DNA of 60,192 nucleotides, counting the filler, from Sluysia triapertura (lineage: Eukaryota): the NCBI GenBank assembly GCA_046118255.1. It is 5 parts of 5 records of this genome, joined end to end, with 100 filler letters (N's around TTAATTAATTAA, not from the genome) between each part and the next. Parts side by side here need not be neighbours in the genome. Positions count along the whole stretch, not along the records: positions 37,013 to 47,956 come from JBJNIA010191129.1; 4 more parts are not named here. One strand, written 5' to 3'. Position 1 is the stretch's first letter; each line of letters starts with the position of its first letter. The notes below the pieces were generated by a model. It searched no databases, was not told where the DNA came from, and saw only the letters and a list, made by a program, of their open reading frames with translations. The translations under genes were made by a program, and so were the position numbers. Below, piece after piece: positions 516 to 60,192 of this stretch.

Positions 516-598
516 TGTTGACTTGGTTGTGCTAACATCTGTTGACTTGGTTGTGCTAACATCTGTTGACTTGGTTGTGCTAACATCTGTTGACTTGG
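516..598. repeat. 24-bp tandem repeat, about 3.5 copies
   Basis: TGTTGACTTGGTTGTGCTAACATC repeated; reads TTKSTDVS in one minus frame, just past the 580..963 ORF. Confidence 0.9.
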
Positions 599-963: not shown

Positions 964-2068
964 TATATTAGTTCATGTGAGGTTGATTATACTCGCAACC
1001 AGCCTTACGGTATTGGAAAAGTTATTATAATTATATCAGGAAAAAATGTGACCAATATTTTATTATATAATGAAGCGGGCCAAAATTGCCTAATATCTGA
1101 AATATCCTTCGCATTCTTCAAATCCTGTTCACGCAACCATGGTCCACTGTTAAAAAATTCTTAATTCTATTCCTAGGACAAATCAATGAGTCCGAATGGA
1201 AAGACTTCTGATAGTAAGTAAAACAAGCCCATATAATTTGATGTTTATCATTAAAATCAAGAGCCAATTATGCCACCAAAAATACAAGATTGGTGTGTGT
1301 GTGTGTGAAGGTCGCACGTTCCTCACATTTATACAAATTATCTACGTCTGATTCATACAAAAGTGGATATTTGGTTGTATTTAGTGGAATCACTTGTACA
1401 AGATGTGTGATATACAAGAAGAGAAACTTTGAAGTCTTACTTGTAGAGGAATCTGATTTTGATATTTCCCTTAGCTGCCGTTATTATGACTTGTTTGTTA
1501 TCAGTAGGGAAACCGAATACTGAATTAACAATTAAAGGGGTTTTTATATGTCCGATGAAAAATAAGTGTGTGATGAAAGGTTCATCAATTTCACACTTCA
1601 AAATGTTTGGAATGTCATTGGATTTTGTAGACAAAAGACGTAACATTCCTACCACAGAAACGATCGATCCTGTTTTAAAACGCATGTGTATTGTTTATAA
1701 TTTTTGCTTGCGGGTGTCTTAATAAAAGAACACATTTAAAAGAAAAGACAAGATTTATAAATGGTAAATTAATCGTTAGTTTATTTTTTATATTATTTTC
1801 TATTTAATTATAATAACCTACGTATTTTAGGAATAATAAAAAATTAGATATGATTTTTCTTAAGAAATAGTTCCACTATCTTATTCTTTTTTTATAAACC
1901 TCCTTTTTATAGAGACATCTATTATGCTTCTGGGATTTTGATAACCCAGAAGGATAATTAGGATGTGGTATACTTATCAAATGTTCATTATTTTGCTGCT
2001 TAATTTATTATGGTTGTGTTATTACAATCTATTGAATTTCAATACTTTGGGATTTACTGGGATTTTTT

Positions 2069-2266
2069 CTAAAATATAAGAATGTCTAAAAAAACTTGAA
2101 TTTCTTCTACAGAAGTTCTGCACAATGAGCAGTTCATATATTCCGTAAATGAAAAATGAAAGAGATTAATTATACATTTGAAATGAAATTTATGCGAACA
2201 GGGGTATATTTTCGTATAGTGCTTATTATAGAACGTTGGAAAATGGAACATCGAGTGAAATACATT
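2069..2266 (-). pseudogene. Small RING-H2 finger protein (frameshifted)
   Basis: YPCSHKFHFKC...CSLCR matches CxHxxHxxC...CxxC; the first Cys pair appears degraded in an upstream frame (MYFTRCSIS). Confidence 0.7.
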
Positions 2267-2479
2267 GCTGAATTTTAAGAAAATAAAAATATAATAAGAT
2301 ACTAGTATTTTAAAATTAATTAAGTGGTTAGTTTAAATACTGCAGTTATGATCCTAATTATGTATATGGCTAAAATCTACGAAAAGTGATTAACAATAAT
2401 TTTTTAAATTTAGGTGACCGGTTGGACAGAAAACAACCGTCAACATCGATCACTCGTAATTTTTATATATAGTTCAATG

Positions 2480-3120
2480 TTACACTTTGATTATAAGTGT
2501 CAATTTTCGCAGTGTCCCTAAATATATTTTTATGGCGTCAGTCATAAGATTTACTGTAAGCAAAGCATAAAGATTGAACGTAACAATGCAAAGATAAATG
2601 TTGATTTCAAATGTTAATTTTTGGTCATTATTGTGTTTTGAAAATTTAAGGTTAAAGCCGATTTTAGTAAATTTATTTGGTATTTTAGTTGTTATTTCAA
2701 TGTATGGTCGTGCAAGTGACCAATTGTTTATACTTATTGTTTCGTTAGTAAAAATTATTCATATGTATATAGTTTGAAATGTTAACTTAGGTTGATAGCT
2801 TAATCTAATTGTTTGTTTATGTGGTATTAATTCAAGAATTGTTTCTCTCTAAGTCCCATATTTTATTACAATCGAATTATTTGATAGTAGATTGGTTATT
2901 TTAATTAGGTAAAGTTCATTGATTAATGCTGTTATAGACCAATTCATCCATTTTTTATTAAAACCATCAAAGAATAAATAAGGTTTGGTCTGTATCCAAT
3001 GATTCATTAATTCCATGGTTATTTTCACTTTGTATAATTGAGATTCAAATAAGTCTTCACAGGTTATGATCCAATACAGAAGTAGTACACCAATTATTTG
3101 AACATCTAATGGATAAACTA
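2480..3120 (-). pseudogene. About 210-codon frame with two in-frame stops; putative membrane or secreted glycoprotein
   Basis: Manual translation VYPLDVQIIGVLLLYWIITCE...INIYLCIVTFNLYALLTVNL...; hydrophobic ends and N-x-S/T sequons; missed by the ORF track. Confidence 0.45.
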
Positions 3121-3151
3121 ATTAATTTCTTATTTATTTCCTTAGCAATGA

Positions 3152-20494: not shown

Positions 20495-21010
20495 AATGGT
20501 AATGGATCACATTTAAATTTAATCCACAAGATTTATCTATTAATGATCGTATAACATGTACTGTTCAGAATCGTGCATTGTATTGTAGATACCTGTCACA
20601 GTCAATATTATTATCTACAAGTATCCCGGACAACCAGTTATAACAAACAAACAACCACAGATTTTCAGAAGACGTTTTTTAACTTCAACTAGCGTAATTT
20701 CTCCTAAAGGATTTCCTTTGCCAGAAGTACATTGGTTTAAATAGTCGATTTCAAAAGTCCTTACGGCCATGAAGGAGATTTAGATCTACGGGAAGAAATA
20801 AAAATTGAAACAATCAAATCAGAACCTATAGCAGAATCCATACGAGACGATGAAATCAGTTATCTTATTGTAAAAATTCGAATCAGTAAATATTATCATG
20901 CTGCAGAATTAGTGTGCGCACATTAACACATTCTCACCATTGACCAAAAAAGTGATTCAATCAGAATTAAAATTGAATATCCACCATCTCGCCTTTACAT
21001 ATCGTCTACA
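20495..21010 (+). pseudogene. Nephrin/Kirre-like Ig-domain fragment, degenerate
   Basis: RITCTVQNRAL, YPGQPVI, KGFPLPEVHWFK, AELVCAH, IKIEYPP Ig-domain motifs across frames. Confidence 0.55.
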
Positions 21011-22329
21011 AATATATCATCCACAACTACATTTATATCAACTCTTAGAAATAGCATAATTAAAAGGCTCTAGTGTAACCGAAGTCATCTTATTTCATCG
21101 ATTTACTTGCTGATCATCTTTATAATTTTGTGTTACACAGATCCTCATTATTCGGAAGTAAAATTATTTTGGAAATTTATTGTATCAAATACTAAAAATT
21201 ACAAAAATAATAAAATATAAATTAATTTATGATTAATACAGTCATAATGATTTTTAATGAACAATGTTTAAGTTTATTTTTATTAATTTTTTTTACTGCC
21301 ATCACATGTACCTGTCAAGTCGGGTTTTATAGTTTTGAAGATATTGTTGTTTTACAAAACAGTACTTGTGAAGTTTGGAAAATTTACCGATCAGAAAATA
21401 ATATGTATCATTCAGAAATTTATAAAATATTACGACAATTTAACACTAATTTTTGTGCTTTAATTCAAAAGTCTCATTTGTGCACAAAGTATAACTAAAG
21501 TTAAATTATGTAATGTCAGTTTTACGAAACATGATTCAGATATATTGTATCAATGAAGTTAGTTATTTTGTGTTTAAAAGTCAATTGAAACTAGAATTTT
21601 ATCCCGCAATTGTTGAGTATATTTGGTATTACTTTAATATAATTTTTATCATTTTTATAATTTAATATCATTTTTATTACTTTATCCTGTCTCAATTATT
21701 TGCATTCAATCATAAATGTTGATTTCATTGTTATATTACAAATATTCACTTCATTTATGTTATTCCGAGTAAAATTATTATCAACCATAATTATTTCTTT
21801 GCCACTTATTATCATATTGAAATTATAAACATTATAAACACTGATTTAAGTTAAATTTGTTACTTGAATTCGAAAAATTACGTCATAGTAGTATTTTTCT
21901 CTATTATAAATTATCTTTAACATTTTTACAATCATTACATTATAAAGGTGTTTTTTTCATTAATCCAAAATGCTAAAGCAAGAATAGAAATTAAAATAGC
22001 ACAAGTTAAAATGTATTGGCTTAAAGCTATTATGCCCAAGCTATTATGTTCAAACTAAACAACGTGTGTTTGAACATATAAACAAATCAAACAATTCGAA
22101 TACATTAACGCTTGTACAGTCAAATAATAGTGTGAGTCTTTTTATATGTCCTTTTGTTCTGTTTATTATATTAATAAAAAGTTAATTTTCGTTTTTATTA
22201 AATTGTTATTCTGTAAAGGCTTTAAGCTTAGTTTATTAGTTAGTAAATTTAATAGTTTTTTAATGGTTATAAAGTTAAAATTTGACGGTTTTTGTTAATT
22301 AAATATTTAACAATTTTTTAAAGATATAA

Positions 22330-25676: not shown

Positions 25677-26396
25677 TCAATGTGACCATTCAATTTCGTG
25701 TCGAAATACGGCTTTCATCAATAAATCTAGGATTGTATCATATAATTCGTAAGCTTGAATCATCTGCTTACTTGGTATCCTCACTTGTTTACGATTGATA
25801 AAACGTTCATTGATTGCTAAATCTGCACCACAATAGGATGACCCATCATGCACTGAAACTAATGATCCGCATGGTTCGATAACATAATTATACTCAAAAC
25901 AGCGACGAAAAATTGATGATCGGAAATTATGAATTATTTCATCACAATTATCCACTAATGTTTTGCTACTTAATACTGCATTCGTTTCTTTTGTATTATC
26001 TTTAAAACCTATATCCAGGTTCGCCTATTTCAATTCACTATCGAAATTCGCTGTCACTTCGTCCGTAACGTGCTCACATTGATTCGAAATATGCATCAAT
26101 TTACCATTATAAACCCCATGACTAAATGCTTCAGCAACAGTTTTATATATTACAGAACTTAGAGACTCTTCCCAATTATGATCATCATTAAAATTGTTTA
26201 ATAAATCACTAAATAGTCCATCACAACTATCATCTAATGTAACAAAAGTGGAATAAATCGTTGTTTTTGAATGAAATAAATCTATCGGAACTACAAACAT
26301 CCCATTATCTAATTCTGTATAATTTTTAAGAGCTGTAATTATTATTAGATCATACAAAGAATCTTCATTAGACTTAGCCATTTTAGTTTTTAACAT
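25677..26396 (-). pseudogene. Pol-beta-superfamily nucleotidyltransferase (TUTase/non-canonical PAP-like) N-terminal fragment
   Basis: The two ORFs are in frame across one TAG (26025-26027); IEPCGSLVSVHDGSSYCGADLAI resembles the PFGS-x-DxD motif with the first Asp read as Gly. Confidence 0.4.
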
Positions 26397-28184
26397 AATG
26401 AAAAACTAATATTGCCCTCAAATTTTTTAATTTCTTTTTATCTAATTATTTTTAATATTCTAGTATAATGAATTAAAAAATTGTGATCAGTTTTCTTAAT
26501 TTAATTGTGAGGTTTTACCGTATTACATACACATAAATGTTTTCCAACTAAAAATTTTGACCTTTATTTTGTTGTTGCTAATTATAGATTCATAAAATGA
26601 AAATAATGATTGGTGTGTTATCAGTAGACATGGTATGAAGACTGAGTTTAATTAAATTGTCTATCGATGACATACAAATAAAATTAGGTGCTGGCTTGAT
26701 TAGTGATTAAAATTTTGCAGATTTGAACAATGATTAAGAAATAATGATAGTTAAAAGCAACACTAAATGATTATAATTATAGTCAGATAATAATACATGA
26801 AAATAAACACAATTCTTTTACTTTGAAATTACACGATATTTCTATTATTTCTTTTATTACTTACATATAAACAATCTTAATATCTTTAGAAATCTTAAAG
26901 GCTGAATATTTAAAAGAATCTTTATACAGAGTTGTTTTTATGTGATATCAGAGACTGTGTATTGTAGAATTATGAGTTTGAAATATTTTGAATTAGATTG
27001 AAGTGTAATTTGCAATTTTGATATTGTGAGAGAAATAATAAAGTTAAAGTTAATAGAATAAAAGTTGATTTATGATATCGTGAGTTCACCAACGTACTGG
27101 ACTTACCATCGAGGGCCAGCCGTTGGATTTTAGATAATAAAAAATTTTTTTCAAAAGTTTAACCGATTTCTTATTATGTCTTTTAATTGTCTCGAGGTTT
27201 TGTGAATTCAATTTTAACAATTTAATAAGTATTTTGCATAAATCCTATGATAAGGATTCTTTAAAATTTAGTTACTTTCGTCAACAAAAAACAATCTGTG
27301 ACAAGTAATGATTTCTCTATTTTGCAACTATTTAATATCAAAAAGACAATATTAACCTTATGAAGGATTTATTAATTACACAAATTAAAAAATACAAATT
27401 TACAATAAAGTATAATAATAATACAATAATTTGCAGGAATTAACTTTTGTAATTCCAAATAGTAAAAATTTTATTAATGTTTTTGCAGTAATCTGTTATA
27501 AGATCACAAATTTTATTAAAGGAATTTGAGTAATAGTTTACAATGATATTTTAAAAAATATCGTATCATAAATAAAATAAACTAACGTTTACACAAGAGA
27601 TTTTATCAAGTTAATGTGTGAAAGTGTTGTCCAAAAATTTCGTTCCACTAATTCACCAAAACAACTTAACGAATTAAAATTTTTTTTATGATTATGTGAA
27701 AAGAATTGTGTGATATATACACTTTCATACACTTTCATAGGTTATTTAAATAAAGTTATTTAAACAAAATTAAAATTTTTTTTTATTTTTTAAATAGAAT
27801 TAATAAACTTACAATAAAATTAAAAGATTAGTAATTAAAGTCATAATAATAAAATAAAATAAACTTACAATTAAAAGAGTCCAATAAATTTGTAATAATT
27901 TCACAATTAAAAGAATAAAATTGTAATAATTAATAATATCAAATTAATAATATCGTAAAAATCAATAATTCATACAATAAATCATCTATAAATGTACATT
28001 GTTGACCTCTGACCTCTGCTACTTTGAAACTTAACAAATATAAGGAATTGAAAAATGAAGAAAGGATTTATAGAAAGTGATTTTGGACAAGAGATGAGTA
28101 GGAAGCATATATATATTTACAAATTCTATGAATAATTGATATAAAGTGATGAACAGAACATTATAAATATTGTTGGAGTGAGGA

Positions 28185-33305: not shown

Positions 33306-33462
33306 TGTTGGGGTAAAAGGCCTAAAAGTGCCATTTAGTAAAATTGAATTTAATAAAAATGAAATTGTTAGACGGGGCTGATAGCTCAGTGGTAGAGCAT
33401 CGACGGCGCAGACGATGGTCCCGGGTTCGATCTCCGGTCAGTACATTTTACGAAGTCTAACA
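33306..33462 (+). mobile_element. 157-bp TG...CA element with internal tRNA-like cassette and 4-bp TSD TCTT
   Basis: TCTT|TGTTGG...GTCTAACA|TCTT; A box TAGCTCAGTGG and B box GGTTCGATCT within 33374-33444. Confidence 0.85.
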
Positions 33463-37012: not shown

Positions 37013-37735
37013 ATCAAATGTAGAAGACTTTAAAGAATTTATTAGATCTCCTTATCTTTTTCGCTATTTCTTTTCATTTCATTTCGTATCTTAAATTTTA
37101 TCTCAGAATATAAAGATTAGAAAGAAGAAGCTCGTGTAAAAAGATATAAAGACATTTATGTACTTTTATTTTTATTCATCATTATTATTATTCTTATTAT
37201 CACTTTCCATCATATTATTATTATAATTATTATTCATTAGTATTACTGTTACTATTGACGGCCATTTAATTATCATGTGATGTAATAATTATGACTAGGC
37301 ACAATATCAGTATAACCTATTAGTTAATTTTAGTCATCAATTATTAATCAGTCATCAATTATCATTAATCTCTCTACCAAACGTCACCCAATCAGAATAC
37401 AGCATTACAAAATATTAATCACTTACTTTTCAATGATCCGGTTGGCTAGACAAAAATAAACAGCCAACTACCAAAAAATCTCAAATTTTTGTATGTGTAA
37501 TTATTGGCAAACGGTGGAGAACAAAAAATTGTTAGTAGTCAAAAAAGAGAACTATATTTCATACACAAAAATACAGCTAATAAAAAACAGTCATTATATT
37601 ACACAGTACTATATAGAATAAATCAATAGCAGCCATTTTAAAAAATCGGGAGAATTAATTGATTAAAAAAAGAGTGCGGAATCTTAGTGAACTGTAAAAG
37701 TATTTTAAGCAGAGTCTTTAAAGATCTATATTGCC

Positions 37736-38812
37736 ATGCAATCAGCTATTAGTGACAATTATAATGGAGTTGATGAACATGATCCTAGAGTGTTACTGTT
37801 TATTAGTAATGTAAAGCAGAGTCTAAGCGATGTTAGATATGATCCTAGAACGTTATCATTTATTAGTAATGTAAAGCAGAGTGCAAACGATGTTAGTAAT
37901 ATAAAGCAGAGTGTAAACGATGTTAGATATGATCCTAGAGTATTTTCATGTGTTAGCAATGCAAAGCAAAGTGTAGATGACAGCGAATCTGATCCTAGAA
38001 CATTATCATGTTTTATCAATATAACGCAGAGTACGAACGATGATGAATACGATTTCAGAACATTTTCACTTATTAGCAATGTCGAGCAGAATACAAATGA
38101 TGATGAATATGATCTTACCATATCATCATGTATTGGCAATAGTAAACTGGAACATCGTCATGAAGAAGATGCGAAGTTATCAAGTGGTAAGTTAACATCG
38201 AATTTCAATTGTATATTTAGTTTTTATACTCATGAACACTATTATATAATTTATTGCAGATTATTCATGCCTTATTATGATACGTCTGAACCCATGGACG
38301 GAGAAGAGCAGCTTCCAACAATTGCAGCAAAACTCTTGTCGTATATGAACGTACCTCAATTTCTAATAAATCATTGTTATAAATCTTTTAAATTTTTTTG
38401 GTTTTATAAATTTGTTTCAAATCCTAAATTATATGATAATTTAATAAAAATTCTTATTAAATTAAGCAATAAAGTGACTCCGAAGGTTCTTGATTCAAGT
38501 AGAGGACAAAGGTTTAATAAATTGTTTTCTAAAATTAAATTCTACATTTATATAAATAATTTCCATAAGGAACGCGTCGAAGCGCAGATTGAAATCTCAT
38601 TTCATAAAATATCTTTTGAAAACGCAGACGCATGCGTTTCAGATCAGCTAGTAATACATAACCATTCAAGCACTTTACGTACACTACGGCCAAACTTCAA
38701 AGCTTTAAAACCTTCGAGATGCATGCGTGACAATTTTGAGTATAAAATGCATCTGTATGATTATAAGACACAATACGACAAGCCCTCACAGCTTGGTCAT
38801 CTATCAAAATAA
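37736..38812 (+). CDS. Intronless 358-aa hypothetical protein with N-terminal 20-aa tandem repeats
   Basis: Longest intact ORF in the window; about six 60-bp units (DPRTLSFISNVKQSxxDVRY). Confidence 0.6.
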   Translation: MQSAISDNYNGVDEHDPRVLLFISNVKQSLSDVRYDPRTLSFISNVKQSANDVSNIKQSVNDVRYDPRVFSCVSNAKQSVDDSESDPRTLSCFINITQSTNDDEYDFRTFSLISNVEQNTNDDEYDLTISSCIGNSKLEHRHEEDAKLSSGKLTSNFNCIFSFYTHEHYYIIYCRLFMPYYDTSEPMDGEEQLPTIAAKLLSYMNVPQFLINHCYKSFKFFWFYKFVSNPKLYDNLIKILIKLSNKVTPKVLDSSRGQRFNKLFSKIKFYIYINNFHKERVEAQIEISFHKISFENADACVSDQLVIHNHSSTLRTLRPNFKALKPSRCMRDNFEYKMHLYDYKTQYDKPSQLGHLSK

Positions 38813-38896
38813 AACATAACAATTTTTTTATATTAAATCATTAAAAGATTCAAACCATTACCCCATAATTACTTAATATTGAAATCATTGTCAGAC

Positions 38897-39165
38897 GCTA
38901 GACCGTAATAAGGCTAGCTTAATATCATAAAATCAAAACCGGAGTTTTCAATAATTAGACCGTAAACGGCTAATTTAACATTTCATTAACAAGTTAGACC
39001 GTAAAAATCAGTTAAATTTGTCCTAAATTACAACGTTTAAATAGATTAAAAAATTCTTCTTAGGTAATCCTTATCGCGACACTCGTTTGTTTCAATTTTC
39101 ACATAGTAAATCCTAACAGGCCGCCGTCGTTCAGACTTAAGTCGCTTTCTGTTAGGCGAACTTTA
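38897..39165 (+). promoter_or_regulatory. Bulged-A hairpin array plus downstream structured motif, copy 1
   Basis: Three TAGACCGTAA...GGCTA units, then a CCTAACAG...CTGTTAGG stem. Confidence 0.65.
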
Positions 39166-40913
39166 TCCAACTAGATTTATTACTACAATGTATTACTAAC
39201 ATAGAAAATTTAAAACTCATCCATAAGATGCACAGAATTCGAGTTATATAATTTAAATCTAATTTTTGAACAGTAAATCTAAAACAACAAATACGTTTAA
39301 TAATTTTGTTTGTATCTTATCTCATTTCAAGTAATCTCCCAATTGTTTTCTGTTTTATAAATGATTACATCTTTGAAATAAAGTGACAAATTACAGTTGC
39401 TAACAGTACGATGAATTAGCAAACTTACATCGATAAATGCCCGAACACCTTATTTCATCTGGTTGAGCAGTGCACTTAAGACGAGCCAACATCTTCAAAT
39501 ATTTATATTTGTGAATGTTAATTTTCTAAAAGAAACGGATATCTTTCTCATTCTCGTGGAATTCATACCACTATTCGTGCACTTAAAAAATGAGTATAAC
39601 CTAAAAATAACTTGTAAAAATCATAGAAAAACTTAATTTGGTACCATTATCGTTATGATAAACGACAGTATTCTAGTTTTGAGTCAATTGGTATCGGTCT
39701 TTTATAATTATTTATAATTATAATTATTCTTTATTCGTTTAGCAAATATTATATGCCCTCCTTTCTAATACTCTATACTACGGACATCTAGTGGTGACAA
39801 ATAACAGTGTGTATAGATAAGTTGATCGGATGAAAACTGTAATTTTACAAATCATATTTCGAATTAATTAATTTAATTGTTACCATCAATATTATAATTT
39901 TTTAATTATTATAATTTCAAGTTTCAATAAAATGGATTTACTACAATAACAAATAAGATGGCAACACTTTTGATATAAATAATACTTGTCATTAAATAAT
40001 ACTTTGTAGTAGTTTGATTTATTCTTTACAATAATCAAAAAGTTTCTTTTGGAATGAGTTAAAATTAAAGTTATTATTTCTATCATATACAAAAATAAGA
40101 AGAATAAAGTAATAAAAATAACACCTTTGGAAAATAAAATAATAATTATAACGAAAATAAATTTTATGCATTTTGTGATATAAAGAAAGAGTTTGTCTGC
40201 AGAGATTTGTTAATGTGTGAGTATAACTAAGTAAAAATCCAAGTATAATTGTTGTAGTTGTTGAAAAAACGATTATTTTGAGCTTAGGTTGTTGTAACTA
40301 TGAAGTTAACTGTGTGTAAGTTGTTGAATTTTTATATATTGTAAATTGATTGCTTAAGTTAAATGTATGTTGTTTATCAGCGTTTTGTTTATTGTACGTA
40401 AATTGTTACTAGGTAATTGTGGGGTTGAGTTGACCACACCGCGTAAAATTCTTTATTATTATGATAATTAATATTAATCCAAAGTTACTGGTTTTCTTTT
40501 AAAATCAATTCACTCATAATGATTATTTACTTGTTTATTTGGTTTTGAATACATCTTACTCCCAGAAACTTTTTTTGGCATAGAGGTTTGAGACTCTATA
40601 TGATTTGATTTACTAAAGTAGCACTTCAATTTCTTCCATAAGAATTAACATCCAAATAAAATAATTATTCAAAAAACCAAAAGACATAATAATCTAATTG
40701 ATATAATAGGATGGCAGCGTTTGGGGAAAATATTATTCGTATTAAAAAATAATTTTAATTAAAAAATTATCTACTCATTAAAATGAGTAGATAAAAATAA
40801 CTTTTATGTGAGAAATAAAAATTTTAAGTTTACTTTTTAAAATATAACTTACTTATTCTAGTAAGTAAATAATAATTTTATGAAAAAGAAAATTTTATAA
40901 TTTATTAAATTAT

Positions 40914-41178
40914 TGTCACGCAAGATGTGAACGTGATTGGTTGGAAATCAGTATATAAGCGGGATTCTTTTTCACAATCAATCCAAGATAAAGTCAGCAA
41001 TATTTGTCTAATTTTTGTCAACCATCTTGAATTTGATTCATTAATTAGTAATATAAATTTGTAAACTCATTTATATAGCCAGATTTAATGAAGACTAAAG
41101 TTCTTATTAAAATTTAAGACAAAATTAAAGGCTCAGAAATTAAATGTAAATTATACATAATCTCCTTATTCCATAACA
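40914..41178 (+). mobile_element. Candidate solo LTR
   Basis: TGTCAC...ATAACA ends, ATTGG and TATATAAG promoter-like motifs, TAT(T) flanking duplication. Confidence 0.4.
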
Positions 41179-42703
41179 TATTTTTGTCTATCGCTGTATA
41201 TTTTAATTTTATTAACTCTGAATATATTTATATTCATTGTTTTATTTTAACACTTTTGTTTAAAATATTAATTTGTCTTTTTAGTTATTTAGTTAATAGT
41301 TTTGAATAAATTGATGCACAACATTTAAGCAAAAAAAGAATAATATTTGTGAGCATTAATAAGATTAATGTCGCTGAATTATAAGTACGACATAATAAAA
41401 TATTAATTAATAAATTAAAGAGTATAATTCCGCATAAACAAGTTAGGAATATAGGATTTTTCAGGCATCGCAAATTATATGCTAATATCATAGTTATAGG
41501 TACGTCTATTGCAGTCTAACCGACTCCGGTGAATTTTATTTTGCTGAGTTTAAGTTAAAGAGAATTATTTGCGATGAAAGTGAGAATAAATAGCATGTAT
41601 AAAAAGTCAAATTTAAATATCCGTAGTTATAAACCTTAATAGAATTTTCATTAACTCAAATAATGAATGAAGTGAAATTTATGTAATCAAAAAAGGAAAT
41701 AATTTATATGATAATAATTATTATTATTCTTATTATAATGATAATAATAATAATAATAATAATAATGAAAATAGAAATAACAAGAGACCAAAATATTACC
41801 TACTAAAAGCGGATTATTTTGATGAAAAGAATTTGTTTGAAAAATGAGAATTAATAAAATATTATTATTATCATAATTATTTCTTCTTTAATAATAATAA
41901 TAATTATTATTATTATCATTATTTTTACAATAATATAGAAAAGCCCATTATTTTAATTTGTCAAACTCGATAATGTTTCTGTTTACTTCATTTAAAATCT
42001 GTATTTCTCGACTAGACGTTATTTAAACAAATAATTTAATAACGTTTCAAATTTAAATTTTGTTTTTATTTTTAAAAGATATTTCATTATAATAAATAGT
42101 TAAACTAAATAAATTTACAAAATGTAGTAATTGTTAAAAAATGAAAATATTCCTAATTCTCAGCATCATAAGCATTATGTCAAATATGTTTGGTTTGTTA
42201 TTTGTATTTGTTTACTGATTTAGAATCAATATTTTAAAGACTATTATACGATAATTCATTAAGATTTTTTGAAATAGTTTCTTTTTGTCTGAACTGTTTA
42301 ATTTATTTCTCGAAAGTCTTCGTTGGAAAATTATTTTTTATTTATTCATTTTACTTATTTTTTTGAATTGAAATAAACTTTATTCAATATTTATTTTGTT
42401 TTCACTAAAATACTTAGAGAAAATTCTTATTTTATTTACAAATCAACATTGTTGCATTATTACGTGATTAAAGTTCTGATTTTTTGAAATTTAAGCATCA
42501 TTAGTGGATGTTATTATTCCTAATATAGCTTTTCATAGATAGGTTAAATGTATTCCTGTTTTACAATTCTATAATTGAAATTCTGAAATTGTCAACAAAA
42601 TTTTTTCCAATAAAAATATTTGTTATTATTTATCAGGCATACAAATTTATGAATTAAATATCACAGTGTAATCAATTTAATTAAATGTTATTATAGTTTA
42701 TAA

Positions 42704-43030
42704 CAGGGGTCGGCTTCATTTTGGCTATGTGGGTCCGGATGGTGTTTTTTGAGAGAGTGCCTGTCCGGAGGGATTATTCAAAATATTATAAGAAAATCTT
42801 ATTAAAAGGCATTTTTTCAAATTGCTCAAAATCAATAAAATAATGAAGATTCTTAAAAATATTTTAGTTCTACATATCATAAGCAAGTACGTTGACAAAA
42901 ACAATGTATTTTAAAAATCTTTTGCATTCAAAAATCTGAAATTTGAATAGTTAATGTGAAACTTGATATTCTTTGTCATCTGAAAGCTTCTCAATATTGG
43001 GTGTCAGGCTTGTTGATTCCTGTCGAAACA
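42704..43030 (-). mobile_element. hAT Charlie/Buster-type transposon 3' end
   Basis: CAGGGGTCGGC TIR at 42704; transposase C-terminus STSLTPNIEKLSDDKEYQVSH* on minus (stop 42951-42953). Confidence 0.8.
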
Positions 43031-43200
43031 TTATGGCTACCTAAATTTCCTATAAATAGGGAAATTTAGAAGAAGAAAAACATCAAAATTACAAGAAAAA
43101 ATTGGACAGTTTTTTTAATCAACAATCCGTGAATGTAAGTTTGTTTGTTTGTAATAAAGATGAAACTAATATTTTACTTGATAACATTTTTAATTTTAAT

Positions 43201-43650
43201 GCTAGACCGTACAAAGGTTAGCTCAATATTCATATTAAAAACATTAATATCAGATTTGTCTGAATATTATTAAAATTTTATTATTATTCTATCTGTTTGT
43301 CGTATAATTTTCTTAATTGCCATGTATAAATTAAATTTTATTTTAATAAATATTAAGATTTTATTCTCTTTCATAAAGCACATCATTCTTTTTTGTTAGA
43401 CCGTAAATAGGCTAGCTTAACCTTTAAAATACATTATCGTTTGCTAGACCGAAAAAGGGTAGCTTAATCTTTATTTTTTACCTGTTAGACCATAGTAAGA
43501 CTAGCTCAAAATACAATTTTCTTAATTAATTATATTGCGCATCTGACAGTTATTATTGATCTTAAATTTCTAAAATATTACGTGACTGATTTTAAAATCC
43601 TAATATGACGTCATCTTCATAGATTTAAGCCGTACTTATTAGACGAACTG
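43201..43650 (+). promoter_or_regulatory. Bulged-A hairpin array plus downstream structured motif, copy 2
   Basis: Four G(C/T)TAGACC...TAGC units, then AAATCCTAATA...TATTAGACGAACT homologous to 39108-39162. Confidence 0.65.
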
Positions 43651-46600
43651 ACCTCTAAATATTTTGCTCGGTTAAACTAAATTGTTTATAAAAAATCACA
43701 GCAACATTATATTTTGTATTTTATTTTTTATTTAAAATGAAAATTTAACAAATATAATTATTATAAAATTATCAAAATATGGAAACAAAAAATTTAAATT
43801 TTAAATAAAACTTTGATCTAACTATTGTCATTAAATAAATAAATTAAATCTTAAATTACTTATTAATTTTATTTAAAATTTATTAAATTTTCAGTGCTTG
43901 ATTATCTTTATTTAATTTATTGTAATTTGTAAAGTTGGTTTGCCTTTCAACTTCTTGATTATTAAATCTATTAAATGATTATAGGTTATTTTAAGTACTT
44001 TAGAATCTTCTCGTGAATGTCTAAGATGGAAGTTATAAATTCAATATTAGTTTGTGTCTAATATTCCCTTAAAAATTTAAATTAAGCTTTTACAGTAGTA
44101 AATAAAAATGCTCACGCTAAAATTCTCCCACTTTCCCGGGAAGCTACCTAGTTTGCTTGTTTATTCGTGTGCGCTTAATATGAATTGGTTTATATCGTTC
44201 TGTTTTGTCGAGTGTTTATATTAATTAGAATAAATATTAATGTGAATTTGGTGTTAATAAATTGCATATTGATGTTTTATAGATGGTATATATGTTGCAT
44301 CTTTAAAATCTGTTAGTTATTACAACTCAATATTATTATCTTGATCAGCATAAACCTTAATAATTTCAATAGTCAGTATATCAAGTATAATTTTGCCGTA
44401 ATCTTCTTTTATAATATTAATAACTATTATACCAAATTTAAGTTTCTTGAAAATCAAATCAAAACTAAAACAATAATGTACTATTAAATAAAAATCGAAA
44501 TAGAATTTATTATTATTATTATTAATACGAGTCTTCACTAAATAAAACTAAAATGATAAAAGTAAAAATAGCGTTAGTTTTACATAGTTAAATACTCAAT
44601 TGTTGAGTTAAAATTTCGACGTAAATTACTGTTTTTCACGGTTGGTCATTAAGGCCAGTCATAAAATCAAACTAAAATATAAAATCTCAAATCTTTAGTT
44701 GGCCCTTAAGGTCAATTATAAAATAGATATTACAGAGTAGAGTCTTTTGGCTAGACTCTTATTATAATTTAAATATTATCTTTATTTAATTTTATTATTT
44801 TTGAGTTATTAAGAATCATAATTGTCTATTTTATTAATTTATAACAATTTTTATCTTATTTTTGTGTAAAAAAATATCAGAATAATTTTGAGTTCCTTTT
44901 GTTATAGTTGTCATAATATAAACGTGTAATCTAAATTGAGTATATAGTCATTTTACATTACGAAATAATTCATAATTAATATATATTTTTTGCATCAAAA
45001 AAGTACCTTGATTTCGATATTATTTCATTAACTTTTAACAAGAATTAGAAAATTCTATGGTCATTATATTAGGATTTGGAGATATAAAAACATTACATTT
45101 TTATACCATCATTCTTCATTTGATTTTTATAACAATTTAGATATTCCATAAGCTAGCGTTGGTCTTAATTAGTTTTTAAGTTATTTATTGTTAGTTGACA
45201 TAGACTACGAATTTTGCCGATTATTGTTAAGTTAAGGCAAAGAGTATTCTTGTACGATTAATTTTAATAATTGCTTTTCACGTAATTTTACAGGTACGCC
45301 ATTAGTAAGTCGTATACTGTAAACGGACTCAGAATAATTAATTATTTTGCTGTAGGTTAGGTTTCTAGATTAAGAAAAACACCCAGCATTATTATTATTT
45401 ATAATGTCATTATTTTTATGCATCACATCACTACACGACATTTTATCCTCTAAAAAGACGTAAGCCCATTTAATATTTAGGTCATGTCGACTTTGACGAA
45501 ACTATTATTATTTAAAGCGTTCGAAAACGAAAATATGTCACATAATTAAATGGTAGCTGAAATGACGGGGGTAAATTTAAGCGTTTAATATGTGTATTCA
45601 AAAGTAATAAAAATATGGGCTGAAGACCCGTACTAACTCAAATATTTACGCAAATAAAAATATTGATTATTATTACTATTTAAATTTTGAAAAGTTAAAC
45701 CGTTAATAATCGGCTTAAGGCCTTTTATTAAAAGATTTATTAAAATCTTCATTACCTATTGAAAATAAAAAATAATAATTGTAAAATTTCTTCGATATAG
45801 TAAACTTTCGTTTTAAGTTGCCTTTGTTCAATATATACTTCATTTTTTCAACCGACACGACATTTAAAATTTGCTGAGGCGATTTTACTCTAAACAATTT
45901 CTAAATCATCTCTTCCGTAATAATGCAACAACGGACGTCCGTGCACTTTAGATTCAAATCGTTATGAAATCCAGTATTCACTGGAGAATCTTTCGCTGTA
46001 TCTCACTAAGCCCTTTGTTTTTATAGCGAAATATTGCTTAGTTCTTCCACAGGTAATCTCTATTTGTATTCGAATCCAAAATTTTAAAATGGCATCTGGT
46101 AGTATAATAATAAGCATTTATTTGATTCTGATTCTGGTATTAAATAAGATTTTCTAAATCTTCTAAATATCAAAATAGAATCTACAATACTCCAATATCT
46201 ATCAGAAATTATTTTACAAGTCAGAGGTCTATGAGTAATAAAAATATAAAAGAATTTGATTAGTCTAAATTTTTTTAATTTGAGCCAAATCTTTTTAATT
46301 TTAAAAAACCTTTCACAATACAATCGTATAATAGTGTGTTAAATGAACTATTACATAGTAGCTACAACAATATAATGATTATAATAATATAAATAATAGT
46401 AATCAATGTATTCAGACAGTTCCATTTTGTTATTATAATCATTTTTCAAATTAACAGACAGACACAAAATATTGATAATTGAAACTTTAAGTCAATAGTA
46501 AGTTTAATATGAAGCATGATACCATTTTTGTTTTTTATTGAGCAAGTTACTATTTTATCTATACGCTTGAAATATGTAAATAGTTTTATTTCATACCTTT

Positions 46601-47956
46601 TTCTCATAACTAGATAATTATTTAGTATACATACTCTAAGAAAAAGATTTAACAAACTTAAATTGTAAATAAAAAGTTGTACTAGTAAACATCTATTGAT
46701 AATTTTAATGAATTATAATTTTAATTTTAATAATCTTTTTCATTCTTTTGCTTATTTATCTGATTCATATTCAGTTAGTATTTGAAGTGGAGTATCGATT
46801 ATATCTAAGTGAAGCGAATCATCATGATTGGGCATGTTGTCATAAACTTGCGACAAGGATAATGATTTCTTAAAAGTTCCCATTTGATCAATGTGTAGCA
46901 CCTTACGTTGTCTTTATATAGTACATTATTTTCTTGGTATTTAAAGTTACCTTCTTTATCAACTTTTGTATGAATAAGTAATTTTTCAATTGATGAGAAT
47001 CAGGATGTAAAAGTTCTGAAGATATATAGGTTTATCATCCCTAGTTATACTATTAAGGTCTTGTTCTTCCACTATAAATCTTTTGAAATTGTAATGACTG
47101 CTATTAGTTTCGTATTGAATTTAGCACAGATTTTAAAATTGTCAAATTCTTGATTACATATATAGCTTTTATAATTTGTCATATTCTTAATTTGTTGTTT
47201 CTATTGAACGTTTCTCTCTAAACATTTGCTTATATTCCTTGAATATTTCGTACCATATTTTCAAAACGCCTCTGATAAAGATCTTTTATGAAAAAGAAGT
47301 AGAACACAGAGTTTGAAAAAACTGTTCAGAGCAATCTTAATGCCAATGAGAGAGGCGATATCGGCGAACTAATCGTGATACTAGTACGATATATTTGTTA
47401 TTTATATATGTTTATAATTCTTTTTTAGATGTTATAGTCTGCATAAAAATGTAGTGATTTTATGATATGTAAGGAATATTTGTGGGTGAATTTGATGTGA
47501 ATTCATGAATAACTGGGACACTACAGTGGCTCCATAAAACACAAGTGATATTAGAAATAATAATATTATTATTAGAAATAACAAATAATAATCTGCATTA
47601 TTCCAGGAGATTTACTTTTGATCATAATTCTATCTTACAAATTAAATTCCATAATCATACTTTATGGTGATTCAATCAACTCGATCAAGTGTTGGATTTT
47701 TAAGTAAAAAATGGTTTTTCTATAAGATTGGGATGGGATTATTAAGTATTTGTATGTGTTAATAATATAAGAGGGTCTTTTTATACATTATACTTTTGAT
47801 TTTAACAGTGATACTCTCTTTACTGAATATTAACTAACAGAAGAAAAATCGATATATATTTTATGAAAGAAAATAAAAATGTAAATATTGTTGTGTCTTT
47901 TAATATTTTTTAACCTTCCCGAACTATTAAATTAAAAATCAATAATTGAATAAACT

Positions 47957-48056: not shown

Positions 48057-48571
48057 CGCATAAAGACATAGTGAATACTTGTGTAGCTTAATATTGAAGT
48101 ATATATATAAGATATATATGATTAGATACATAATTAGAGAATTAGTTTAGTATTTCGTTTTCAATGCAAGATAAATGATAAAGCATTAAATACATTTTTT
48201 TCTATTTTGGATAATGTTATTAAATTTTGAAATGTAATTTATTGAAATCTTAAAGCAAACCTTATAGAAACTGTGTGTAAAGTGCACAAAATTCAATAAT
48301 GATCTTTTTATTTATAATGTATTTTATCAATTTTAAAAACTCTTGGAAAGGCTTATGAATTTGATAAATACAAAGCAAAGTGAAAATGTCGAACAACCGA
48401 AGTCAATGATTTATTCTAGTCATTCGTTTCAATTTGATGCATAAAAAAATTAATAACTAATCCATTAAGTCAGAATAACCAATTTAATTTCAGTCAACCT
48501 AATGTGAATTGTAATTTTTGTTTTAATATTAGAAGATTTTAGATTTTAATGATGTACAATTCTGAATATCG

Positions 48572-48886
48572 GTGAATTTTCTTTTAAAGATGTTCATAAT
48601 TAGTGATGCAAAAGCCGTAAGGGCATTAATTATAACCCATTATATTCAAGACACAATTCAAGTTCATTATAACGTAACAATAGGTGTCGATTCAGCATTG
48701 AAAGAAGTTTTTTGGCACGACCATAGAAAGTTTGAAATGCAATTATGCGATATTGCCGGACAGGAACTATATTCATCAATAGCAAGAGCGTATTATAAGG
48801 AAGTTAGTGGTTGCATACTACTGCAGAAGAAAGATCATTTCAAAGCACGACCAAATGGAAAGAAGACAGTAAGTTATTTGATATAG
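48572..48886 (+). pseudogene. Rab32/38-like small GTPase pseudogene
   Basis: YNVTIGVDSALK and QLCDIAGQE (cf. Rab32/38 WDIAGQE), RAYYKE; P-loop destroyed, truncated. Confidence 0.75.
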
Positions 48887-50050
48887 GCAAATTATCAGTA
48901 ATAGGTGCAGTGTCGATCAGCAAAAAGGAAGCTGATACATATGGAATAACGAAATAAATTTTGAAGATCAGTAAGATGCCTAATACGTATGAATTGTTAA
49001 TTATAGTTGCAGTCTTAATCGAAGATCCTATGAACCATATTTGGAGATCAACTTTAAATGTAGCCTCTATACTGTGGCAATCAAGAAAATCTCGGATTTA
49101 AATTTTAAGGATCCAGCGTAGAACTCTGTTTACGATGAATTAGATGTCACTAAAGCTTTGCAGAATAAGGAAGTGTCCGATTTTTCTGATGTTGTATTGA
49201 AATTATTATATTGTGATGCTATTATCCATTTTTTTATTAAGTTGAAAATAATTCAGTTGAAATAAGTTGAAAATACACTTAGTACTGAACAATGGTACCC
49301 CTTACCCAAAGAGACGTTTACGTTACTTAATTTTTAAAGTTAATCGAATATATAAGCCTATTCATTTTAGTATGTGGACAGTCTTTTCATCAACAACCGA
49401 CTTGGACAGGGATATTGTTTGCTCAGTACTAAGAACAAGTTCATAATTTTAAAAACTAGCGATTTGAAATTTCGTTCGATTTTTATTTTGAACTTGATAT
49501 ATGATTGTCACCGAAGTATGTTTGCTTATGCCGTGTATGTTGAGAGTGCGATGAGTTACTGCCTTGACAAATTTTTTCGTACGATGTATTTTCATGTCAG
49601 CCTACATATTTGGAATGATTCTTTTATTATTGAGCCTTGTCGCACATATGCAAGATCCACTCGCGAATTCAAAATTGAGGCTCACCTTAAGGTTGGAAGT
49701 TTAGATACTATGGATAATTATAATGCGCATATCCATAATTTGGTACATCGACATGAAATTTTACATAATTTTGAAATCTCTTCCACGTACGTTGTTGTAT
49801 ATACTTGGTATGAAGTTTTTATCGTGCTTGAGCCCGGTGAGATAACTTTTGTTCAAAATGTTGGAAAGACTGGAAGCTTAGGAGCGATATACTACAGCCT
49901 CACGGATGATAGTGAATGTAAGTTTTATAGTATTATACTTGTTCAATGTGTCAACAATCATTGTCAATCTTTTTTTATAAATATGTCATGTTATTCTTAT
50001 TCAAATCTTGTTCTTTATAATGAGATTTTCGGTGCCTTAAGCACCGATTT

Positions 50051-50161
50051 TGTTATAATTTTAAATATTATGTAGATAAAACACGTTGTAACAGTATGTA
50101 TAACAATAATAACAACGGTAACCTTAAACACTTAAATCATAAGACAAAGACCACAATAACA
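50051..50161 (-). mobile_element. 111-bp LTR-like unit at the point where RNase H is truncated
   Basis: TGTTAT...ATAACA 6-bp terminal inverted repeat starting exactly where RH (NYSTNEKEC) breaks; followed by the palindrome TCGGTGC(T/C)TTAAG(G)CACCGA. Confidence 0.5.
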
Positions 50162-52099: not shown

Positions 52100-53810
52100 A
52101 GTTTGTTTTTCTCTCCTTTTTTAAAGCTTTTAATAGAGCATGAGCGTGACTATGTAATAGAAATTCAGCTAAAAATTGGGAACAACCAATTATTAACTTC
52201 CAAGTAAAACCTGATATTTTATAAATACCTATTACTGAAAATATTTGAGATATTATAAGAGCGATAACTTTAATTATTACATATATACCTATGTTCGCTT
52301 TCTAGCTTGAAACAATTATGAAAAATTACTTTTAAAATGGGATAAATACTTTTAAAATGGGATAAATACTTTTAAAATGGGATAAATAACTAATTTTAAA
52401 TGGGATTTTAGTGATGAGTTTGACCAAAGATTAATTCTTGGGTTGTAAATTAAGTTGATTTTGAGTAATATTTTGAGGCAACGCATTTATGCCAAATTCT
52501 TATTATGAATAAGCTTACTTATAATTAGTAAAAATCGCCGACAGATAAATGATCCGAGTATTGTTTCCAAAAATGTGACTTAAATTCAAAAATGAAATTA
52601 TCTGACGAGCAAATTTGTGGATTTCTCAAAATTATATATAACGATCGGACTCGTGAATTCCAAAATTGTAGATTATTAGTAAATCATCCAAACTAGTTTT
52701 CACACTGTCTCAAAGAATTTCACTATTAGCTTTATTATTGTGCGTTACAATTCTTTTTATACTTGGTTCCAAGAATGACATAAATAAGCTTATTCGAATG
52801 AAAATATAAATAATTTTTAATGTTTACAATTTTGACTAATATGAATAATTGAAATTAAATTTTGATAGACAATTAATTTCATAAATATTTACATTAATAA
52901 TTTGGTATAAATGTAAAAAGATCATTTTTTAAAGTTTAATTTACAAATTTTAATGATTTATGAAATTTTCAAATAATAATAAAACTTTTTAATATTTACA
53001 AAATTTTTTCTACAATATTTATACAGTGTTTTTACAAAAATTTAATAATTACAAGATTTTTAAATAAAATTTTAATATTTACAATTTGTACATTTCATAT
53101 ATTAGTTATAGATAGTGTTTACACTATTAAACCAGAAAAGGCTTGACTTATAACTAAGAAATTTCCCCAAATTTGCTTTAAAGTACTCTGTGCTGCTTTT
53201 TTAAAATGATCAGGTCCTAATAATAATTCAAAATTTATTTTATCATCTTTTTCCACTATTGCTTTGTCAACTATATCTGTAAGTACTTTAGATCTTTTAA
53301 TAGGAAATAAAATTTCATGCCAAACTGCTTGTGTATCTTCATTAGAATAGATTCCTGAACTTGGAATATTTTTTGTAGCTGAAAATTTTAATTTCGTTTT
53401 TAATTATGTTAAACCAATGATTTCCGGAGTTTTAACTTGACTTCGATGTAGTAATGATATCCAAAGATATTCGGGAGCCATCACATTAGAGAAGTGTAAA
53501 GTTTATTAGTTGGCATAATAATTCTAGTGACTGGTTCTAAATAAGTATTTTGATTTTTATATATTACTGGTAATTCGTTAATACATTCATTTTCTTGCCT
53601 TATTTGTACTTCTACTTTTCTACATTTGTATGAGTATAAAACTTCGCCCATTAGCCTACCAAATACTCCTTCTAATGGAAGTAATGATGCTACTAAATCT
53701 GGGTTAGTTATTGCTACAGCTAATTTAGTTCTTAATATTTCTTTATTGAGTTGGCAATCCCTGGCTATCATAGTTTGATAAGCTTTTTCTAATGACATTA
53801 GTATTATAAT
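52100..53810 (-). pseudogene. env: Chuvirus-G/herpes-gB-like (class III) envelope glycoprotein C-terminal half, split by an insertion
   Basis: GEVLYSYKCRKVEVQIRQENECINELPVIYKNQNTYLEPVTRII, SSGIYS, QIWGNFLVISQAFSGLI|GIYVIIKVIALIISQIFSVIGIYKISGFTWKLIIGC membrane region. Confidence 0.75.
52292..53123. mobile_element. 832-bp TGT...ACA insertion (solo-LTR-like) inside env
   Basis: CTA(T) duplicated at both junctions; removal restores FSGLIGIYV; contains a 20-bp tandem repeat TACTTTTAAAATGGGATAAA. Confidence 0.75.
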
Positions 53811-55429
53811 AAAGAGATAAATTATAAAAGATTAAATTCTGTAGTTATAAAAGTTAAAATCAGTAGTTATTCATTCATTTTTACACCAGTTTTAATGCTG
53901 TGGTTAAACTCATTATATATATTCAAGATACAAGGAAACAGATTCGATTACATAAAAATGTGTCTATATTTATCTATTTTCACACTGGTTTAAATACGAT
54001 GATAAATTTACCATTTACAATCCTACTTAATACGAGATTAAAATAAAATCCATATATAATACGAAGATAAAGAATTATCGAGTTTCACTAAATTTAAAAG
54101 GAAGTTATAAGATAATCTTCATTGTTAGAAATTCAATTCTTTAACAGCACTGCGCATTATTCAAGCGATAATTATTTGTATAGTTAATAGCACCTCCACA
54201 TCTTTATCTGATTATTATCTAAACCCTCTGATCAAAGGTGAACTCACTAATCTATATTTATAATTTATAATTGTAAGTTAGCAGTGTTAAGGAGAACCAC
54301 ATCATACCAAATTTCTTTTCTTTAAAATGTTTTGATGCAATACGTCATGCGTTAACCTTACGTTACACGTCGATTTGGTGTTTATCTGAATTGGTATCTT
54401 AGTGCCAAACCATATAACATATACAACATATATAAATGTGGTGGCCAGCACGATTTCAGAAGGTTTTTTGATCCATAACATACTTTTACACAACATACAA
54501 ACCACACATTACATCTAAAATTATATTTTAAAATTCACAAAAAAGAAAAAGCAAAAGAAAATGAATATTCCACAAGACATCTTCAATTTCACTAAACTTC
54601 TTTCATTACCCTCTTTTCTACTTATTTTTACCTCTCATCACATTAAAATTTACCAAATTTATACTCTAAAATTCTGAAAATAAAACGAAATGAAATTTCT
54701 ATTACATACCCTCAATTCTATTAACTTTATGTTACAACTCTTCCTTTTACTCATTTTAACTTCTCCTCTTATCTAACTGTTTCTATCTATAACAATAATA
54801 TGGATTTTATTCAACAAGTCCCATCTAACAAAAAAGCACGAAGATCTTATAATATTAATCCATATACAGATCAATCGTTATACAACACCACAACTTTCAC
54901 AATCTTCTCTACAACATTCATTATCGTTGATTATATCTCGAAATCCAGCATCTGTTATTATTAATAATTCAATCTGTCAAGTGCCAAATGCACAGAATAT
55001 CAACAATTATGAGCATTTAAAGACACATCCGCTACAATTACTTTCACAACACCAGCAACAGCGATTTTAGTTCAAGAACCTAGCTAACAAGAAATAGTCA
55101 TTATATTCATCGATATATTAACATGCAAAAAAAGACGTAAATCAAAAGAACAAGCTTAAGAAGAAACAACAGATAAAGAATTAATCCTGAAGGTAGCACA
55201 AACATCGACCTTAATAAGTTGTACGGACAAAAAAACTTACGTATCAACTCCACGAACTTCTCAAATACCTGTAAATAATGATAATAAATTAGTGCAATGT
55301 ATTAAGTTGCAACTTTTGTATCAATAGCTATTTATGTACGCTACTAAAATTAGTATATTTTAATCTTGTGTAGATAAGACTGGCTTTTACTATGAACCGA
55401 TATTAAATAATTTCAAGATTATTTTAGGA

Positions 55430-58279: not shown

Positions 58280-58452
58280 TGTTGGAGTAAAAGGCCTATA
58301 AAATGCCAAGTAGTATAATTGAATATATTGAACAATGAAATTGTTTTACGGGGCTAATAGCTCAGTGGTAGAGCAGTCGAACCACCAAGCAACCACCAAG
58401 CGATGGTCTAGGGTTCGACCGACCTGGTCGGTCCATTTTACGAAGTCTAACA
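58280..58452 (+). mobile_element. 173-bp TG...CA element with internal tRNA-like cassette and 4-bp TSD TATT
   Basis: TATT|TGTTGG...GTCTAACA|TATT; colinear with 33306-33462; AACCACCAAGC duplicated in the loop. Confidence 0.85.
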
Positions 58453-59245: not shown

Positions 59246-60192
59246 TCATTATTAAAAAAATCGTAAAGTTAATATTTGTAAAATTAAACAGTTAGTATTG
59301 TGAAAATTTATAAAACTATCATATTTAAATATTATTAAAAAACAAAATAAAAATCTAATCTTAGAAAAAAATTTTAATAATTGAGATAAATTTCAATTCT
59401 AAAAACAGCTGTAGCAGCTGAAAAATAATAAAAATTAAAATATTCATAATATTTTAGATTCCCAGCTGTAGCATCTGTTAAAGCGTATATAAAGTAAAAT
59501 TTTAATTATTCAACTCAACAAGAATTTTTAAAAATTTTAGAAGTAAAGAAAATGAACATTTAAAGATTTAAAAACAAAATATGACTCGAATCCACAAAAA
59601 ACTTTGCAGCTAAACAAACAAGCAGATCGACAGATTAAATAAAATTGATTTCGTAAGTTTTTACGTGTAGAATCATTTGCTTAAAATCTTAAATAAGTTA
59701 TAAAATCTTATTTAAGCTAGTTTAAACTAGCTGTAAAATCAATTAATATTAAAGTGAAAGGAACAATAAGAAAGGTTCTTATTAATAAATTTGATCCTAT
59801 TAATAAACTTGTTGTGTAGTTTATCGATATTTTGTTTAAGCAAGAATGCATAAAATTTATATGATCATGAAACAAAGTAACCAGAACATAGTAATGAGTA
59901 TAATTTGAGATTGGCCAAGCAGCTTGTATAATCAATTGCCAAAAAATTTTTAGTATAAACATATGTTTGAAACATTCTTTCATTAAATAACAAATATAGT
60001 CTACAGATAGAGAAGTTAGAGAATATTTTAATTTATCTAGTTCCGTTTCATGTTTCATTCCACTTATATCCAAATTAATATAAATAAGTATACAAAAATA
60101 AATCAGAAGAAGACTGTAAAGTAAAGTAATGTAAGTCTAAACATAAATAATCAATTATTATTAGGTCAATATTCAATTTATCAAAGTCTAAA

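Follow-up and report, generated by a model that had tools for sequence, protein, structure and literature searches.

Tandem bulged stem-loops 3′ of an open-reading frame are familiar from the iron-responsive element array of the transferrin-receptor 3′ UTR, where the elements have a bulged C, a 5-bp stem and a CAGUGN loop, and the MS2-type operator combines a bulged A with a 2-bp upper stem and a 4-nt ANYA loop. Among DNA transposons, hAT transposases are reported to require 100–200 bp of subterminal sequence, and Hermes to bind two strictly phased subterminal repeats that together form a quasi-palindrome, these repeats (STR1 and STR2) being 4 bp long (excerpts of PMC10368747). Buster elements target nnnTAnnn, Mar being a non-autonomous element of the hAT Buster/Charlie group (PMC3517528, in part), whilst lizard hAT families such as hAT-HT2 and hAT-HT3 show the target patterns NTNTANAN or NYYTARRN (PMC3014272, in part). 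Helitron and Helentron (DINE-1, HINE) 3′ ends carry a hairpin ahead of CTRR, by definition a 16–20-nt palindrome ~11 bp before it in canonical Helitrons, in multi-copy elements that may hold cargo reading frames (PMC4067079, in part), and baculovirus homologous regions comprise at least three short direct repeats with a ~24-bp imperfect palindrome, at several loci and adjoining unrelated reading frames (PMC4535591, in part).

The window analysed here is a stretch of 60,192 nt from Sluysia triapertura (GCA_046118255.1), in which separate contigs are joined by artificial 100-nt linkers at 13840, 24739, 36913 and 47957 (two 44-N runs round a 12-mer), so that the flanking pieces are not true neighbours. 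It is AT-rich (20–31% GC), and the arrays described below lie on the piece at 37013–47956. The first-pass annotation had placed three hairpin units at 38897–38918 (u1), 38953–38975 (u2) and, in decayed form, 38993–39016 (u3), and both their sequences and their positions are exact; the array does lie just 3′ of a 358-aa open-reading frame, u1 beginning 85 nt past the stop at 38812. Four further units occur on the same strand at 43201–43222, 43395–43416, 43443–43463 and 43484–43505 (Table 1). We refer to the two array regions, with their surrounding repeats, as A and B.

Table 1 Window coordinates of the repeat units, end motifs and neighbouring features.
Feature	Position	Strand	Description
358-aa open-reading frame	37736..38812	+	N-terminal 20-aa repeats; multi-copy; putative cargo of repeat A
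u1	38897..38922	+	5-bp lower stem, unpaired A, CC/GG, 7-nt loop, conserved TTAA tail; 42.6 bits (training sequence)
u2	38953..38979	+	AT version of lower stem, 3-bp upper stem, 4-nt loop
u3	38993..39020	+	Decayed, left arm intact; 28.9 bits; unit-register fold predicted absent (pair probability 0.0)
End motif, block A	39108..39162	+	AAATCCTAACA ... TGTTAGGCGAACT, 8-bp stem round ~29 nt; multi-copy region stops nearby
Candidate Buster-type hAT left end of B	42696..42715	+	8-nt flank GTTTATAA, then CAGGGGTCGGCT at 42704
u4	43201..43226	+	u5 follows 194 nt downstream; block A lacks an equivalent unit
u5, u6, u7	43395..43509	+	Collinear with u1, u2, u3
End motif, block B	43595..43649	+	Homologous to the A end motif; arms 21/24 identical
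Candidate decayed right inverted repeat of B	43646..43657	+	8/12 matching, all four differences transitions

Both arrays are far beyond chance. The pattern TAGACC-N3-14-GGCTA was matched three times against 0.03 expected, with three or more matches in none of 100 shuffles, and a structure-only descriptor, free in stem sequence, gave five matches (four in the arrays and one lone) against a shuffle mean of 0.94; same-strand neighbours ≤250 nt apart were found with the latter in 0/200 shuffles. A covariance model of the seven units scored 28.9–42.6 bits for the units, which are its own training sequences, and ≤14.5 bits in the rest of the window. The left half TAGACC is invariant in all seven units, the arrays show periods of 39–57 nt, and the CC/GG pairs are kept as had been claimed, each in 6/7 units; the unpaired A lies 2 bp below the loop in five of the seven. 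The conserved tail lies outside the stem. The spacers, which had been called unrelated, are related close to the stems: similarity is 66% over the 5 nt that follow the stem, with a background of 32% (0/5000 draws), and 47% at positions +8 to +14 and −14 to −8 (p 0.008 and 0.005). Elsewhere in the window, a lone perfect stem at 59711–59735 (−) has the lower-stem arms of the units, a 7-nt loop and a TTAA tail, and lies at the stop of a 118-aa frame, its score of 14.4 bits being at chance level. An 8-bp hairpin at 37440–37469 (+), upstream of the 358-aa frame (z −2.7), has a left arm resembling that of the units, and CCAAT-like and TATA-like boxes were seen near it by eye.

A second common motif follows ~110 nt after each array, with an A/B match score of 46 against 32 for the next best of 1978 tiles (mean 15.4, sd 4.1). 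The resulting blocks of ~280 bp are collinear, u1-u2-u3 aligning with u5-u6-u7, and their motifs are 72–88% identical. Identical columns number 57/79 in the units, 21/24 in the end-motif arms and 55/142 in the spacers, the long spacer being at the null level (0.45 vs. 0.46). Units and end motif together thus reach 78/103 columns against the spacers' 55/142 (Fisher p 8e-9, a value inflated because the alignment anchors on the motifs). Upstream of the arrays, DNA comparison and tblastn found no sequence shared between A and B. The distances from unit to end motif, 263, 206 and 167 nt in A and 252, 204 and 163 nt in B, are kept within 2–11 nt. Taken together, the common motif, the collinearity, the unrelated upstream sequence and the kept distances identify the object as a ~280-bp end module of two repeat families, and on these comparisons the units belong to that shared module and not to the reading frame alone. 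The proposal of a repeated recognition element under constraint is supported, in that the units are kept between two diverged repeat families with spacers at background. The first-pass annotation had missed the place of the arrays within an end module common to multi-copy repeats, a place that raises a DNA-level reading.

The copy-number evidence all comes from one sequencing run, possibly of the source sample, whose coverage of intergenic sequence indicates DNA; long low-copy contigs of this run, at a depth of 9.5–19, served as the single-copy reference. Summed contig depth, which is not a copy count, reached 22,526 at 38979 (u2) and 2,037 at 39077 (spacer) in block A, and past the block it was 42 in the bin 39203–39567, where a low-depth contig spans 39127–40397 (boundaries are resolved to 365-nt bins). 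In the reading frame of A it was 274–3,147 outside repeats and ~12,500 in the tandem repeats. The block B region had summed depths of 343–2,443 (2,443 at 42827, 784 at 43408); on the left side of repeat B, depth climbs from 86 to 584 between the bins 42123–42487 and 42488–42852, the latter containing CAGGGGTCGGCT at 42704, and its right boundary is blurred by the next repeat. Up to 47 contigs differ at one site within B, 17 contigs read T at 38979 in the u2 tail and 34 differ at 43408 in the u5 loop; among 40 listed of 1,191 differences, three fall in the blocks (38979 in the tail, 39077 in the spacer, 43408 in the loop) and none in the stems, a weak indication from a shortened table. Both arrays clearly lie in multi-copy families. 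The u2 region is deeper than the non-repetitive reading frame, as it would be were a single end common to many families and the frame present in just some of them. A very high-copy repeat lies at 44313–45407, ~700 bp to the right of block B, with summed depths up to ~200,000 per bin, and no open-reading frame of 100 aa was found in it.

The reading we narrowly prefer, to which we give a probability of roughly 45%, is that the units are quasi-palindromic DNA sites for a protein, placed subterminally at the right end of DNA transposons that are non-autonomous, one of them with the orphan 358-aa frame. A cut-and-paste transposase, probably of hAT/Buster type, would bind the units in trans and thereby grip the right end of the element, each unit presenting two inverted half-sites round a short A-rich core, and the binding of several transposase domains, each a fixed distance away from the tip, would make the end ready for excision by assembling it. 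The two repeats would both be non-autonomous, B being ~950 bp without coding capacity and A having the orphan frame, and the hairpin would be a by-product, because of the dyad symmetry of the sites. Binding by a transposase, the class to which it belongs and the lack of autonomy of the repeats are all inferred. The invariant left half, the conserved tail, the kept end distances and an end that is deeper than the reading frame all fit such sites.

Membership of repeat B in the hAT group is plausible from its ends, although the target-duplication test fails. Repeat B starts with CAGGGGTC, the same 8 nt with which several lizard hAT ends begin, after a flank that fits NTNTANAN, a target pattern of those families (PMC3014272, in part); 0.0013 such pairs of start and flank are expected per window, for a pattern chosen post hoc. 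The candidate right inverted repeat is the best inverted match to the left end of B in the next 5 kb and lies exactly where the A–B homology stops. The left flank fits nnnTAnnn and the adjacent right 8 nt differ from that flank; its 8-mer reappears only at 43684–43691, which is 26 nt too distant (candidate right side 43646–43691). Of the ends compared with the YARNG pattern (PMC3014272), the left CAGGG and right (reverse complement) TAGAG of B both fit, and the right end of A, TAGTT, does not; the left end of A lies outside the contig, which starts at 37013, and within 37013–37735 the right end of A had no inverted match. No unit was found near the left end of B. The general likeness to non-autonomous hAT elements (lizard hAT-HT2/HT3, PMC3014272; Mar, PMC3517528) lies in repeated quasi-palindromes within 150–450 bp of one end, in a B that is ~950 bp and non-coding, and in different bodies sharing one end, but the units are 22–27 bp where the subterminal repeats of Hermes are 4 bp (PMC10368747, in part). 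The locus also differs from described hAT elements in having no adjacent 8-bp duplication, a right repeat of B matching at just 8/12 positions, an end of A that is not YARNG, an intact orphan frame in A and no transposase seen, the 358-aa frame being without a Pfam match. The unequal halves of the units, by one base, better suit a bulged hairpin than a symmetric DNA site. Baculovirus homologous regions, as partly described in PMC4535591, are an analogue of the same reading in their DNA-level protein-binding design, but here the repeats are dispersed in a cellular genome with low-copy flanks and a shared end motif, and no viral gene was found.

The close rival to this DNA-site reading, possible though we hold it to be the less probable of the two, is that the units fold as bulged-A hairpins in plus-strand RNA, whether from the repeat or from multi-copy host genes, and that one RNA-binding protein docks on three or four of them. 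Together with the larger end hairpin, the units would make up a portable module at the 3′ end that serves packaging, retroposition, stability or localisation. The array is in the sense of the reading frame and starts shortly past its stop, the one-base asymmetry suits a bulge, and independent stem-loop arrays are known from ASH1 elements (PMC11499389, in part) and the packaging signals of MS2 (PMC4751978, in part). The resemblance to the MS2/R17 operator (TR) and packaging signals, as far as the latter source covers them, is in the unpaired A 2 bp below the loop and in having several stem-loops per molecule, but the loops here are of 6–7 nt, or TAAA on a 3-bp stem in u2, rather than an ANYA tetraloop, and this is a eukaryotic DNA repeat, without a coat protein and with a putative RNA form.

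In the units 45/49 stem cells pair, where slid controls drop to 3–59%, and hairpins can form, yet shuffles pair at 88.5% and 46 of 500 reach 45/49, and the covariation score is matched by 24/500 shuffles, so the description of the hairpins as covarying is not borne out. The signal is carried by u2 and its neighbour u3, and is entirely G>A plus C>T. The stems depart from their commonest base at 14 places; 12 of these changes are G>A or C>T, two break a pair, and none is a pairing-preserving transversion. Since G>A in one arm and C>T in the other re-pair automatically, the GC-to-AT swap of u2 is explicable by AT-biased decay. Against the DNA reading, u2 has gained a third upper pair and three double changes slightly exceed what a neutral-decay simulation predicts (P 0.039), or not if u2 and u3 share one (two changes, P 0.24), and one double change is present in the end hairpin too. 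Strand bias is absent, one-sided changes making G-U on the plus strand in 4/6 cases (p 0.69); neither significant covariation nor strand bias, whose absence from a larger alignment the annotation had named as its refutation, is seen in the seven units, a test of low power in seven related sequences. Covariation is weak evidence for selection on pairing in this alignment.

With local folding, 5/7 stems have a pairing probability ≥0.93 on the plus strand against 4/7 on the minus strand, but in whole-region folding just 3/7 exceed 0.5 on plus and u5–u7 are at 0.12–0.20; the fold of cluster A is somewhat better than those of its shuffles (z −1.94), and that of cluster B is not (z +0.77 on plus). 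Against docking in RNA there are also ATTAAA motifs at 38832 and 38840 that could end the mRNA of the reading frame ahead of u1 (another, at 39045, follows u3), the lack of an intact open-reading frame upstream in block B, and the lack of a poly(A) or simple-repeat tail after the end motif. An association with gypsy 3′ UTRs had been suggested as a check and is not supported: with the model, the three gypsy remnants of the window neither contain nor adjoin a unit, and the contig shares just low-complexity matches with them. A wider version of the same idea seems to us rather doubtful. In it, three or four bulged-A hairpins and a terminal stem-loop would make up a portable RNA module, 3′ in position and uncatalogued, kept in an animal genome by two or more high-copy mobile families whose bodies are unrelated. 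The module would serve as a multimeric tag in the manner of MS2, allowing a partner element to package or copy in trans any cargo RNA, e.g. that of the orphan 358-aa gene.

Two further explanations are improbable. In one, the hairpins act in single-stranded DNA at the 3′ end of Helitron-like elements, with the end hairpin as terminator, the units as extra or relic signals and the reading frame as captured cargo. CTRR does follow the end hairpin, by 14 nt in A (CTAG) and 11 nt in B (CTAA), the copies are numerous, and gene capture is on record (PMC6431247, in part), but the hairpin of ~45 nt is too long for the definition cited above, CTRR is followed in both blocks by A rather than T, contrary to A/T insertion, and CTRR does not occur 10–12 nt after the units, which would be extra upstream elements; no Rep or helicase was seen. 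A Helentron would have TT flanks and a subterminal inverted pair (PMC4067079, in part), whereas B is not followed by TT and the 13-nt end motif has no inverted copy within one mismatch. In the other, judged about equally slight, the units are a decayed ~45-bp tandem repeat of no present function, a passive passenger in the repeats, as their periods, related flanks and AT-biased changes would allow; the better conservation of units and end motif than of spacers argues against it, with the inflation of that p value noted above.

A splice-acceptor array is more improbable still. YTAG at the unit start after a pyrimidine-rich tract would define short (~11-nt) or alternative last exons, 5/7 of which read Pro-stop in one frame; the TAG is invariant, upstream pyrimidines stand at 64% against 53% local background (p 0.019), and GTAAG occurs at 43135, ~70 nt ahead of u4. 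The conservation of exon-side ACC, the dyad symmetry and the end motif would then go unexplained, the candidate donors are mostly GC, GG or AC, and none of the donor patterns scanned occurs between u4 and u5.

Other identities fit poorly or were rejected. The units are unlike iron-responsive elements in having a bulged A and a 2-bp upper stem, with no Rfam match, though they share the arrangement of tandem bulged stem-loops 3′ of a reading frame. For Penelope-like/Terminon hammerhead arrays, the hammerhead core pattern was absent from both contig strands and Rfam gave no match; for p53, 3/7 right arms fit the half-site pattern, which has 13 sites in the window, and its core is broken in the other arms. 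A gypsy 3′ UTR or LTR, which would place the units between pol and a PPT plus LTR, was set aside, as no polypurine tract (PPT) precedes the TGTTAGG motif and the flank after A is low-copy, and LTR-end and PBS readings were likewise rejected. For a relict spliced-leader array (tandem leaders that end in ATG, 5′ of a gene) or an SL RNA (leader, donor and Sm site), the minus strand shares just CGGTCT with the Macrostomum leader (PMC8629364, in part), there is no Rfam match, and decay is greatest in the units that lie furthest 5′ on that strand. A reading of B as a short-intron membrane-protein gene was unsupported, a 48-aa frame matching one repetitive protein in a hit judged spurious.

Rfam gave a sole match in the window, tRNA-like and outside the arrays, and four weak matches in the contig, all below gathering, of which sR32 (E 3.8) overlaps u2 on the minus strand. 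Pattern scans elsewhere returned 3, 5 and 0 loci in viral contigs, 1 in metagenomes and 4 in prokaryote genomes; all 13 scored ≤22 bits by the model, none had an array, and those inspected were coding DNA, a CRISPR-like array or simple repeats. Phage BLAST gave just 27–32-nt matches (E ~0.1–0.3). None of the papers listed by a literature search for motif strings describes such an element, and neither block nor reading frame had a relative outside this organism in the viral, metagenome, prokaryote and protein collections searched, whilst eukaryotic transposon libraries may already catalogue the families.

The 358-aa frame contains 60-bp (20-aa) tandem repeats at 37779–38146, and joints in the DNA run suggest that their number varies among copies. 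Pfam gave six weak matches to the repeat part, all below cut-off; no relative was found in a collection of 5.8 billion sequences (near lengths only), nor any match in Atlas, PHROGs, PDB sequences or viral contigs, and a single-sequence structure model was uninformative (pLDDT 33.5).

On the other pieces of the window are decayed remnants of gypsy elements, a frame resembling Rab32 and a fusion fragment of mononegavirus type, content which points to an animal-like genome. Two of the gypsy elements are bordered, directly past their RT/RNase H remnants, by antisense frames of no recognised kind at 48566–50075 (+) and 25680–26405 (−), the former set including the intronless, degenerate Rab32-like frame (38% identity); they are possibly captured cargo. 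The broken fusion glycoprotein fragment (Pfam PF24664) at 53122–53831 (−) lies upstream of a gypsy protease and RT, and a fusion protein-protease-RT gene order is described for planarian Burro elements (PMC6431247, in part). A Burro-like context for the arrays was rejected, as ~1.1 kb of non-coding DNA separates the fragment from the protease/RT and it is on another contig. Two tRNA-like heads, at 33375–33445 and ~58340–58420, without an ARAGORN call, probably belong to a tRNA-derived SINE family, and broken frames at ~20500–21070 (+) have an immunoglobulin-domain-like motif by eye.

The element is real and constrained, and most likely a new example of an already known element type. If the units are DNA sites, the result would be modest: a transposon end that is new and specific to its lineage, its quasi-palindromic subterminal repeats being unusually long, together with an element of high copy number that has an orphan gene on board. 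The locus would then also illustrate how a DNA palindrome under AT-biased decay can mimic RNA covariation. If they act in RNA, they would constitute a new multimeric RNA signal common to unrelated mobile families.
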